From the IMG/VR virus record IMGVR_UViG_2703719365_000008: 6,256 bases of DNA. One strand, written 5' to 3'. Source of the stretch: a virus. Taxonomy: Duplodnaviria > Heunggongvirae > Uroviricota > Caudoviricetes. Positions 1-3,000 of the stretch are shown one piece after another. Made by a program: the position numbers. Position 1 is the stretch's first letter; each line of letters begins with the position of its first letter.

Positions 1-3000
1 TAATGCAACCGGCCCCCGACTGGCAGACGCCGCTGAACGGGATTATTTCATCCTCAGAGAACGGTTGATGACAATGCAGAAGCAGCTGGAAGGGGCACAG
101 GACTATATCCGCACTCAGTGCCTGAATTAACAGAGCCAGCTTAATCGCTGGCTTTTTCATATCTGAATTTCATCGCGCATCTCACGCGCATATCACATCC
201 CCGAGCCTTTCAGAAAGTTGAGCCTGAGAACTGTCGTATATGGTGGCGACCATCTCGGGGCGGCTTTTCTGTGAGACAGGCTCAATTTTCTGAAAGGTAA
301 GACGCTATGAACTATCCGACGATTGTTAACGGTATTGATTTCCGCGATCTTGTTTTTGTGACAGGCAACGAGCCGGTGACGGATACCCGAAAGGTTGCCG
401 TAGCATTTGGCAAAGAACACAAAGATGTATTGCGGAAAACAAGAGCCGTTGTTCAACAATGCTCAAAAGAATTTGCAGAGCGCAATTTTGCGCTTTGCTA
501 TGAAAACAATGAGTTACAGAACGGTAAACCCCAGCCCATATATCGAATGACAAAAGACGGTTGGACGATGTTGGTATTTGGTTTTACGGGGAAAGCTGCT
601 ATGACCTTTAAGGAAGAGTACATTCAGGCTTTCAACTGGATGGCTGAGCTTATTCAGCAAGGTCTGGCGAATCTGGAGGCGGAGCGCAACGCTGTAATGC
701 TGGAGTACATGAAAGAGAAAGATGTCGCCAGTATGTCAGGTCGTTTGCTCAATCGCTGGGGCAGGGTGAAGAAGCCTCAGTTGCTGGCAAGGCTGGACAG
801 GCTGGAGCAGCAGGGGCAGATTGCGTTACCCGGATTTGATAAAGGCATTTCAGCCTGACATAGCCATGCGCCGTATCGTCGCCGTATCCCCGCATTAACA
901 GAGACCGCAGCCACCTTATCTGCGTGAGTGTGCGGGGATAATCAAAAACGATGCACACCGGGTTTTCTCATTTTTCACGAGATGGGAGCGATTTCCCGCG
1001 AAGCCGCCTGTCCGGTGCGGTGGTGGAAGAAACCGGATAAAACAACCGCATTGTGCAAATATCGATCAAATATGGTGCTGCTGTGTGAAATCTGAAAAAT
1101 CACAGCGGTCATTATGCATCAGTTTTTAACACAGGACGTCAGAACGTGACATGGCAAAGCTGGACTGGAAAAAGCTGGAGCAGGCATTCCGACGCGAACA
1201 TGCCGAAACGGGAATAACATTACTGGACTGGTGCCGGAAGAAAAAGATTAATTACAACACCGCCAGAACCCGTATAAAAATGGGCAAAATCGATCATGAA
1301 ATTGATCATAAAACCGATCATGAAATCGATCATGACATCTCAGATGAAGAACCCTGCAATGACGCGGGTTCCGGCGATGAAAAATGCGCAAAAAACTCTG
1401 AAAAAAACTGCGCAAATTCGGCAGAAACGAAACGGATTCGTGGTTCCCGACTTTTACCACCTTCAAACGCTTTTTCTCAGCGAAACACCCACGCCGTAAG
1501 ACACCGTGGATATGCGAAGTATCTTGAGGCAGATAACCTCATGGATGATGCGTCCGACATGGTGCTGTTCGATGAACTGGTGTTCACCCGGGCCCGCGCA
1601 CTTTCAGTAACTAAGGCACTTAAAGGGATGTTCGCCGACCTGGAAGAGGCAACTGACGTGGAAACCCGCGTTGCTCTTTACGACAAAATACTCAAAGCTG
1701 AACAGGCCCTTGACCGGAATATTGCCCGTATCGAGTCAATTGAACGCTCATTGCTGACGCTGGACGTCCTGGCTGAGACAGCACCAAAACTTCGTGCTGA
1801 CCGGGAAAGAATCAACGCCGCCAGAGATAAACTCAGAGCGGAAACCGATATTCTGACCAGCCAGCGCCGGGGTGTTATTACGCCAGTCAGTGACATCGTG
1901 TCATCGCTGCATGAAATGAGTAATTCGGGGAGACTGGATGACATTCCGGAAGAATAAAACGCGATGTGATGAACCTGCAGAAATGACTGAGACCGAACAA
2001 CGTCTGTTCATTATGACAAAACTGAGCAATCCCTGGTGGCGCCTCAATCATCTCTACAAAATACAGAACGAAAAAGGTGAACTGGTCACCTTCAGAATGC
2101 GACCGGCGCAGCGCCAGTTGTTCCGGAGCATGCACAATAAAAATATTATCCTGAAAGCACGCCAGATGGGTTTTTCCACGGCCATTGATATTTATCTTCT
2201 CGACCAGGCATTATTCATTCCGCATCTCAAATGCGGGATCGTCGCTCAGGATAAACAGGCAGCCAGTGAAATTTTCCGCACAAAAATTGCTGTACCGTTT
2301 GATCATCTCCCTGACTGGCTGAGAGCCTCATTCACCATCGTTGAACGTCGTAGCGGTGCCAGCGGTGGCTATATCCTGTTTGGTCACGGCTCGAGTATTC
2401 AGGTGGCAACCTCATTTCGCTCAGGTACGGTGCAGCGCCTGCATATCTCAGAGCACGGCAAAATTTGCGCGAAATATCCGGCTAAGGCGAAAGAGCTGCG
2501 AACCGGTACGCTTAATGCCGTTTCTGATGAATGCATTATTTTTGATGAATCCACGGCTGAAGGCGTGGGTGGTGATTTTTACGAGATGAGTAACCGTGCA
2601 CAGGAGAGCACTGCATCAGGCTTATTGCTGACGGCACAGGATTATAAATTCCATTTTTACGCCTGGTGGCAGGATCCTAAATACAGCGCCAGAGTGCCGG
2701 AAAGCGGGCTGAAGCTGTCACGGGAAAAAATGACGTATTTTTCTGCGGTTGAGAAGGCAATGAACATCACGCTTACTGATGAACAGAAGCAGTGGTACAT
2801 CAATAAGGAAACTGAACAGCGTGAGGAAATGAAGCAGGAGTTTCCCTCAACGCCACAGGAGGCGTTTCTGACGTCCGGACGACGTGTGTTCAGTGCCGAA
2901 AGTACGTTGCAGGCAGAATCATTCTGTTCGCCACCGCTGATTGTTTATGACATTGAACCTGTTACAGGAGCGAAGACTAAAGCTCAGTCTCTGCGTGAAG

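Follow-up and report, generated by a model that had tools for sequence, protein, structure and literature searches.

A widespread phage leader RNA with two alternative sets of covarying helices may control translation of rha

We analysed a 6,256-nucleotide (nt) stretch of Caudoviricetes DNA (IMG/VR record IMGVR_UViG_2703719365_000008; hereafter the window), which represents the late region of a Shiga-toxin (Stx)-type phage and contains the gene rha. The segment at about 165-309, flanked by the terminator that follows Rz and by the start codon of rha, encodes a leader from a widespread family of RNAs for which neither Rfam nor the genome records examined have an annotation. The + strand RNA of this leader can form two alternative sets of helices, Fold A and Fold B, both of which covary across related phages and which we infer to exclude each other. 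We favour, as an even call, the reading that the leader controls translation in cis with two states, Fold A closing and Fold B opening the ribosome-binding site (RBS) of rha.

The leader RNA and its two sets of helices

The first-pass annotation had reported an inverted repeat ahead of rha, with 21-bp arms, one G:U pair and a 50-nt loop, and a repeat search returned exactly this: CCTTTCAGAAAGTTGAGCCTG at 206-226 and CAGGCTCAATTTTCTGAAAGG at 277-297, 21 nt each, 95% complementary and 50 nt apart, the sole non-Watson-Crick position being G217 versus T286, a G:U pair on the + strand. By our own arithmetic, about 1e-5 inverted repeats matching at 20 of 21 positions within 100 nt are expected per 6.2 kb; the dyad is real and far above chance. 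When + strand RNA 190-330 was folded, as had been suggested, the arms (L and L') were paired in both the minimum free energy (MFE) structure and the centroid (-52.2 kcal/mol, z = -4.9, 0 of 200 shuffled sequences as stable), and the - strand fold was weaker (z = -2.9). The right arm indeed holds the Shine-Dalgarno sequence of rha (AAAGG, 293-297), which lies 9 nt ahead of the ATG at 307. At equilibrium its unpaired probability is 0.001 in the window versus 0.43 +/- 0.24 with a shuffled upstream leader; the values for phi80 and the commonest P22-type leader are 0.03 and 0.003, with shuffled-leader controls at 0.3-0.55.

What the first-pass annotation overlooked is that the dyad belongs to a larger element with alternative, probably mutually exclusive pairings, and that the perfect stem of the window is atypical. 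The strands follow one another in the order P0 (with the K loop), 1, L, 2, tip hairpin (hp), 1', 2', K bulge, L', Shine-Dalgarno sequence and AUG, and are given below with the evidence for each.

175-189, + strand: P0 hairpin, stem GCGC 175-178 / GCGC 186-189, loop AUCUCAC 179-185 (MFE, covariation)
180-185, + strand: 5' strand of K, P0 loop UCUCAC, partner bulge GUGAGA 271-276 (covariation)
199-205, + strand: strand 1, CCCCGAG, partner 1' (duplex energies, covariation)
206-226, + strand: L, left arm of the dyad (repeat search, fold, duplex energies, covariation)
227-236, + strand: strand 2, AGAACUGUCG, partner 2' (fold, duplex energies, covariation)
240-253, + strand: tip hairpin hp, AUGGU-GGCG-ACCAU, shared by both folds (fold, covariation)
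254-260, + strand: strand 1', CUCGGGG, partner of strand 1 in Fold B and an internal loop in Fold A (fold, duplex energies, covariation)
261-270, + strand: strand 2', CGGCUUUUCU (fold, duplex energies, covariation)
271-276, + strand: six-nt 3' bulge GUGAGA between 2:2' and L:L', the 3' strand of K (fold, covariation)
277-297, + strand: L', right arm of the dyad, with the Shine-Dalgarno sequence AAAGG 293-297 (repeat search, fold, accessibility)

Pattern scans of IMG/VR yielded 53 unique leaders of the window type (type A) and 40 unique leaders of the P22 type (type B). A covariance model built from type B leaders only (R1) recovered all type A leaders end to end, with E values of 1e-10 to 1e-19. 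On the window it aligned model positions 1-149 to 165-309 (74.1 bits, E 2e-19), and the window follows the P22-type order of P0, L:L', 2:2' and tip hairpin, ending at the start codon. A second model carrying the Fold B pairings (R2) matched the same segment with 50 bits (E 8e-9).

In Fold A, the dyad is predicted to be the basal helix of a long irregular hairpin, which continues upward from L:L' through a 6-7 nt bulge in the 3' strand, helix 2:2' and an internal loop with 254-260 to the GGCG-looped tip hairpin. In a model-guided alignment of 100 leaders, 92.5% of the Fold A cells were paired versus 32-47% with slid partners, and 28 of the 35 pairs had changed on both sides (covariation score 0.458 versus at most 0.117 for slid partners). 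The result was similar for 24 species-representative genomes, retrieved by a pattern fixing strands 2 and 2' only (90.3% versus 33-47% paired; 23 of 35 pairs changed on both sides; score 0.325 versus at most 0.067). Column-based pair counts on MAFFT alignments of window-type leaders were abandoned for duplex energies and model-guided alignments, because helix registers differ between subtypes. For type B alone, a MAFFT alignment scored for Fold A plus 1:1' gave 95.7% paired cells versus 34-49% slid, with 6 of 42 pairs changed on both sides and a score of 0.126 versus at most 0.055; compensatory changes fell in P0, 2:2' and 1:1', and L:L' showed many G:U/A:U alternations. Individual helices behave alike: P0 is 99.5% paired with, e.g., CG/UA at 85/13, the tip hairpin is 99% paired with a GC/CG swap of 52/44 at one pair, and 2:2' changes in compensation across types, as in AGAAAUGCCG:CGGCUUUUCU versus AGGAUACCAG:CUGGUUUCCU. 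The dyad, whose conservation the first-pass annotation had left to be checked, is retained as a helix with compensatory changes in more than 100 related leaders, L and L' varying in length in step (18, 19, 20 or 21 nt).

Fold B consists of the tip hairpin, helix 1:1' and helix K, in which the P0 loop pairs with the bulge of Fold A. For the window, K comprises 6 bp (UCUCAC:GUGAGA) and 1:1' 7 bp (CCCCGAG:CUCGGGG, -13.3 kcal/mol). All 13 distinct loop/bulge combinations can pair, with a mean of -6.4 kcal/mol for cognate versus -3.4 for non-cognate combinations; 96.4% of the K cells are paired and four of the five pairs have changed on both sides, a result replicated in the 24 species genomes. Natural recombinants that join a phi80-type left half to an Sf101-type bulge also have an Sf101-type P0 loop. 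Since one unpaired nucleotide precedes the K strand in the P0 loop and none follows it, the P0 stem and K would together have the geometry of a classical H-type pseudoknot. Helix 1:1' can form as a duplex of 5-9 bp (mostly 6-8) in 93 of 93 unique leaders, in several distinct sequence versions; six of its seven pairs have changed on both sides, with up to four pair types at one position. The versions of both helices are as follows, 5' strand first.

Window: K, UCUCAC with GUGAGA; 1:1', CCCCGAG (199-205) with CUCGGGG (254-260)
phi80 type: K, UCUCAC with GUGAGA; 1:1', CGAGAG with CUCUCG
Sf101 type: K, UCGCA with UGCGA
Delta type: K, UAGCAC with GUGCUA; 1:1', CCAAGAG with CUCUUGG
P22: K, CCGCA with UGCGG; 1:1', CACCGA with UCGGUG
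Other type B: 1:1', CGUCGA / CAUCGA with UCGACG / UCGAUG
Type C: K, UCGUAC with GUGCGA; 1:1', AGAGAG with CUCUCU
Type D: K, CGCUC / CGCCC with GAGCG / GGGCG; 1:1', CCACAGAG with CUCUGUGG
phi191: K, UCACAC with GUGUGA; 1:1', CACAGAA with UUCUGUG

Counted over 98 leaders in a model-guided alignment, Fold B was 93.6% paired versus 29-53% slid, with 13 of 15 pairs changed on both sides and a score of 0.531 versus at most 0.075. The corresponding values in the 24 species genomes were 91.2% versus 23-52%, 10 of 15 pairs, and 0.452 versus at most 0.174.

The window departs from its relatives in the strength of the dyad. Its L:L' duplex is perfect (-34.9 kcal/mol), and those of all other unique leaders range from -17 to -28 kcal/mol with 1-3 internal mismatches, a C.A mismatch six pairs from the base recurring in types A, C, D and E. 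The window allele, from an Stx phage and with a perfect stem, looks like the most tightly closed version. In a sister lineage of 49 Stx2a phage records (e.g. LC616034), an 11-nt deletion that removes one repeat copy of 174-195 abolishes the P0 hairpin and the K pseudoknot and leaves the perfect dyad in place. With its perfect stem and this loss of P0 in a sister lineage, the Stx-phage version seems shifted to the closed state. The direct repeats concerned, CGCGCATCTCA at 174-184 and CGCGCATATCA at 185-195, span P0.

A proposed two-state mechanism and its alternatives

Helices K and 1:1' are nested in one another; both cross L:L', and 1:1' also crosses 2:2'. Read along the RNA, the 3' strands of Fold B (1', then the K bulge) take turns with those of Fold A (2', then L'). 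No linker separates strand 1 from L in type A leaders, whereas its partner 1' is placed some 31 bp up the hairpin of Fold A; 1:1' and L:L' should therefore be unable to coexist. With 1:1' and K closed, L would sit in a closed loop and could probably wind about one turn at most with L', so that distal L', including the Shine-Dalgarno sequence, would stay free. For the window, the computed energies are -50.6 kcal/mol for Fold A and -21.4 for the nested part of Fold B, to which K adds about -6.9. The direct path from B to A has a barrier of about 16 kcal/mol, an upper estimate from a pseudoknot-free model. When growing prefixes of the RNA were folded, the MFE structure of the prefix ending at 260 included 1:1', and L:L' took over only once position 297 was reached.

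In the mechanism that we propose, the window segment would act as a cis-acting + strand leader on transcripts reading from the lysis genes into rha. Fold A would be the thermodynamic ground state, in which the base of the hairpin pairs the Shine-Dalgarno sequence and rha translation is blocked. In Fold B, the tip hairpin would be closed by 1:1' and K formed, with L and strand 2 looped out and L' and the Shine-Dalgarno sequence free, a state that presumably permits translation. Since the strands of Fold B are made before L', and 1:1' would have to open before two turns of L:L' can wind, Fold B would come first, and on the nascent RNA it would provide a limited period or a conditional state for rha translation before the RNA collapses into the closed Fold A. 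Folding kinetics would be the simplest driver, only young transcripts being translated; the switch could also be driven by an RNase that cuts L in its looped-out state, or by a factor that binds the leader. A broader reading, to which we hold tentatively and with more doubt than belief, is that these leaders form a hitherto unrecognised class of bistable, pseudoknot-locked RNA switches, widespread in temperate Enterobacterales phages, that restrict translation of accessory DNA-binding or antirepressor-type genes to a short time after transcription, as a molecular timer, or to the presence of some factor. Such a factor might possibly link the leader to the old genetics of integration host factor (IHF) and rha: work by Mozola and Friedman in 1985 and by Henthorn and Friedman in 1995 is said to have linked IHF genetically to rha toxicity; rha was reportedly first defined by genetics, unchecked Rha preventing phages from growing in hosts that lack IHF. 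Still more remote is a self-processing RNA with pistol-like topology.

Several observations weigh against the two-state mechanism. The first-pass annotation had proposed that the dyad sequesters the RBS in read-through transcripts, and the setting fits, the dyad lying in what relatives annotate as the late operon, right after a terminator-like hairpin. This proposal stands for the window, where the helix is predicted to hide the Shine-Dalgarno sequence, but is weaker in several subtypes. In the Sf101, Klebsiella and P22 leaders the Shine-Dalgarno sequence (unpaired probability 0.44, 0.45 and 0.41, respectively) is, in the nearest-neighbour model, no more buried than in shuffled controls, and P22-type leaders have it just outside L'. 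The predicted extent of occlusion varies by subtype; hiding the RBS may thus be incomplete, or may not be what the leader is chiefly for. Furthermore, the mutual exclusion of the folds comes from topological reasoning and not from a three-dimensional model; K could coexist with Fold A, and 1:1' could form in trans. Prefixes from 264 to 290 favour another helix, CCUGAGA with UCUCGGG, which makes it uncertain whether Fold B persists during transcription. Alignments derived from covariance models also lean towards the modelled structures and inflate pairing somewhat; the slid controls and the MAFFT-based count nevertheless indicate that the covariation signal is real.

The energies would also suit one static, compact pseudoknotted fold, i.e., Fold A with K docked on the bulge, which damps rha translation and/or stabilises the mRNA, 1:1' being a transient folding guide only or intermolecular. 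Fold A is favoured over Fold B by about 20-30 kcal/mol, a K that crosses L:L' is sterically conceivable with the 10-22 nt linker of the family, and the family holds L:L' in a narrow stability band. However, 1:1' has the richest covariation of all, which is hard to explain without a functional state, and the missing linker between strand 1 and L in window-type leaders should keep it from coexisting with L:L'; we regard the static fold as unlikely. Similarly unlikely, in our view, is that the leader serves processing control or is the precursor of a small RNA, an RNase III or RNase E cut freeing the Shine-Dalgarno sequence, inactivating the mRNA or releasing a stable small RNA such as P22F (see below), which would act in trans in the manner of IsrK. 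The window's 21 uninterrupted bp near a second helix reach the length of double-stranded RNA that RNase III is known to need (about 20 bp or more), as the first-pass annotation had supposed, and L, single-stranded in Fold B, would be exposed to RNase E. A sequencing study of small RNAs during P22 infection reported P22F, an abundant 89-nt + strand RNA confirmed by reverse transcription PCR and given 'no known function' (Naaz et al. 2026, PMC13397905). Mapped on P22, this RNA starts inside the left arm, at its middle, and its 3' end falls 5-6 nt short of the rha ATG, downstream of the Shine-Dalgarno sequence; leader RNA of the + strand thus accumulates in discrete form, a hint at processing. 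However, two RNase III cuts should leave a pair of ends staggered by 2 nt, and the P22F ends do not form one; the stems of most relatives contain mismatches, P22F has no known target in trans, and the leader always lies immediately before a start codon. Note that P22F maps onto a P22-type member of the family whose type B model, R1, detects the leader of the window; the P22F paper describes no leader architecture, covariation, pseudoknot or alternative fold, and the window is only distantly similar in sequence.

A switch sensing a factor, with a host or phage protein or a small ligand stabilising Fold B or Fold A, would agree with two covarying, competing folds, which are a hallmark of riboswitch-type elements, and a secondary source states that IHF regulates rha (PMC4936722). 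We nevertheless consider it improbable, given that few unpaired nucleotides are strictly conserved across types, that inspection of the leader by eye showed no convincing IHF consensus site, and that there is no candidate ligand and the downstream genes are heterogeneous. Least probable by far is an origin of the signal in DNA, whether through transcripts from an internal promoter that escape occlusion, through an operator or through a 'boundary sequence' for recombination. Both hexamers from which the first-pass annotation had derived a weak promoter in the loop, TTGAGC and TATATG, do exist, with a spacer of 13-14 nt where a sigma-70 promoter has 16-18 nt, and recombinant leaders show exchange inside the element. 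However, a scan found no sigma-70-like site in 1-1300, and TTGAGC is specific to the window lineage, relatives having CTGAGC or GCGAGC; the loop is conserved because the RNA pairings 2:2', tip hairpin and 1' lie there. The operator alternative, raised in the same annotation, fares no better: the arms covary rather than keep their sequence, their lengths change in step, and the same leader stands ahead of unrelated DNA-binding proteins, the identity of the downstream protein being immaterial. In delta-type leaders the half-site palindrome is lost and arm-to-arm complementarity is kept. G:U exceeds A:C at 137 versus 65 in Fold A and 18 versus 2 in Fold B, a bias that, like the covariation and matched indels, points to RNA.

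Other candidates were tried and rejected. A small open reading frame (ORF) in the loop (ATG at 240, 17 codons) is shifted in frame by subtype indels, and its substitutions lack codon periodicity. For a - strand antisense RNA of the sar type, we found no conserved - strand promoter and a weaker - strand fold, together with the excess of G:U over A:C on the + strand. An intrinsic terminator formed by GCCG...CGGC and UUUUCU has an interrupted stem, its U-run is paired in 2:2', and P22-type leaders have UUUCCU. A promoter overlapping P0 has 2-4 of 6 matches only, is not conserved and gave no match in the scan.

The general mode of action would be of a known kind. In the 5' untranslated region of the MS2 maturation gene and in hok mRNA, a long-range helix hides the RBS and an earlier alternative pairing delays its closure; in the hok family, both the metastable and the final helices covary. 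The present leader has no sequence or architectural homology to either, and its alternative fold has an H-type pseudoknot and interleaved strands. Alternative or cleavable structures near the Shine-Dalgarno sequence set the translation rate in lambda cIII mRNA and at the RNase III site of the lambda N leader, which are likewise phage mRNA leaders but differ in genes, position and structure. The E. coli leaders of rpsO (S15) and the alpha operon (S4) toggle between a hairpin and a pseudoknot beside the RBS and bind a known autoregulatory protein; the toggling is alike, whereas the proteins downstream of the rha-type leader are interchangeable. The Pistol ribozyme resembles the leader in topology, a 5' hairpin loop pairing with the 3' strand of an internal loop between two helices, but the helices of the rha-type leader are far longer, no conserved catalytic core was recognised, and the Rfam Pistol model has no match in the window at E <= 1.

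P1/P7 c4 RNA, Gifsy-1 IsrK and P22 sar likewise exert post-transcriptional control over Ant/Rha/KilA-type genes of temperate phages. The models for isrK (RF01394) and C4 / c4-a1b1 (RF01695, RF03163) gave no window match at E <= 0.1-1 and scored 48-79 bits in Gifsy-1 as positive control, in which R1 in turn had no match; the IsrK/c4 antisense system was therefore rejected as an explanation. It also lies in the Q-lysis spacer, whereas the rha-type leader lies in the lysis-terminase spacer. In Gifsy-1 (34131-34329), Rfam isrK adjoins and overlaps an antisense RNA of the C4 family together with the a1/b1 targets of the latter, all ahead of the antirepressor-like gene STM2616, so that the IsrK system looks like a P1-type c4/ant module.

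Distribution of the leader family and the genes behind it

A block of about 135 nt upstream of rha is 76-87% conserved in phages with different flanking genes, namely phi80, HK620, Sf101, HK639, g341c, SF11, S135, one Klebsiella phage and one Pantoea phage, and leaders are also present in P22 and Stx phages. R1 additionally finds the more divergent types C and D, often in the second tandem cassette of the same contig, and phage phi191 carries a fifth, so that there are at least five sequence types. Type A alone occurs in 919 of 5426 complete E. coli genomes (about 17%), with up to 4 copies. The hosts span at least nine genera among phage records and more in the genome scan, in which species genomes of Rahnella, Providencia, Proteus, Pantoea, Buttiauxella, Lelliottia, Pluralibacter, Shimwellia, Rouxiella, Symbiopectobacterium and others have the leader.

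The position of the leader is constant. An Rz homologue lies upstream in 169 of the 206 members with enough flank (82%), a hairpin with a T-run lies within 70 nt upstream of P0 in 219 of 236 (93%), and the leader always directly precedes a start codon. The genes that follow encode Rha with ORF11CD3, KilA-N, Rha alone, HNH_3 with AP2, T5orf172/MUG113, ANT, P22_AR_N or unknown proteins, i.e., at least 8 unrelated domain families, which can be exchanged from one leader type to another. The same families of genes follow both leader types, indicating free reassortment of leader and gene. The proteins behind the leader share a C-terminal ORF11CD3 module of about 50 aa on varied N-terminal domains (Rha, KilA-N, P22_AR_N).

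None of the 4227 covariance models of Rfam 15, with pistol, sar and the known riboswitches among them, matches the window or the P22 type. The sole Rfam hit of the window is a sub-threshold serC-leader (16.5 bits versus a gathering score of 35), and that of P22 is a sub-threshold Leu-leader falling on the terminator; the interleaved alternative helices and H-type pseudoknot match no curated family. Among the unpaired positions, the GGCG loop and the bulge bases GUG stay constant from type to type and the others vary. Our literature searches turned up no description of the leader structure, and the BTP1 transcriptome paper has nothing on the rha leader locus.

Many lambdoid and P22-like phages, Shiga-toxin phages among them, carry Rha, KilA-N and Ant-type genes in the late operon, and the function and control of these genes are poorly understood; a portable, conserved leader offers a concrete way to study their silencing or timing. 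It also explains a conserved 'non-coding' block where annotations have apparently spurious ORFs or wrong start codons. With its pseudoknot and competing helices, the family is well supported for Rfam-type annotation and could become a model of control by co-transcriptional RNA folding.

Further observations concern single records. Tandem leader-gene cassettes occur within one prophage (7315-7457 and 8505-8625 of one contig) and on six further contigs; a separate terminator-like hairpin usually precedes the second cassette, whose leader is more divergent (types C, D), and type D precedes a small protein starting MF(N/G)(I/F)F.KKAR. On one IMG/VR contig (3828-3990), the leader stops right after the bulge (CTGTGCGAA) and unrelated sequence follows, so that a recombination or deletion has ended within the element there. 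Enterobacterial-phage leaders were found on four short contigs binned as Cellvibrionaceae, Bacillota or Collinsella metagenome-assembled genomes, most likely through mis-binning. In P22 (NC_002371), the RefSeq GTG start of rha falls inside the structured leader, 69 nt upstream of an ATG (676 versus 745); Rha N-terminal homology and the Shine-Dalgarno sequence point to this ATG as the start. Small ORFs are annotated across the leader in g341c (gene 63, 973-1143) and SF11 (a - strand ORF, 976-1101), and are probably spurious.

Flanking genes and minor observations

The surroundings of the leader in the window match those of the family, after the lysis cassette.

Up to 130, + strand: end of Rz (sequence)
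134-157, + strand: terminator-like hairpin with stem 134-140 / 147-153 and a following T-run, directly 3' of the Rz stop codon (sequence and scan)
307-858, + strand: rha coding sequence, 183 aa, Phage_pRha and ORF11CD3 domains, the gene under putative leader control (ORF and domain match)

The hairpin at 134-157 is the upstream border of the cassette, and its counterparts are annotated terminators in the phi80 and HK639 records. The terminator scan flagged it on the - strand only, so that it may work in both directions. Downstream of rha come a 290-nt spacer and then the small terminase, large terminase and portal genes. Other Stx phages have bor in place of the terminator-leader-rha block, which therefore occupies a moron-type slot between the lysis and packaging genes.

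The spacer itself (859-1150, 290 nt) has its homologue in other Stx phages between bor and the terminase genes, and is also partly homologous to lambda. A structure signal was looked for in it and none was found (z = -0.58); in phage 75/02 its counterpart is annotated, probably wrongly, as an Rz-like spanin. The ORF at 1151-1957 (268 aa), which precedes the large terminase gene and overlaps its start by 20 nt, contains a short imperfect peptide repeat (KIDHEIDHKTDHEIDHD) near 1290-1340.

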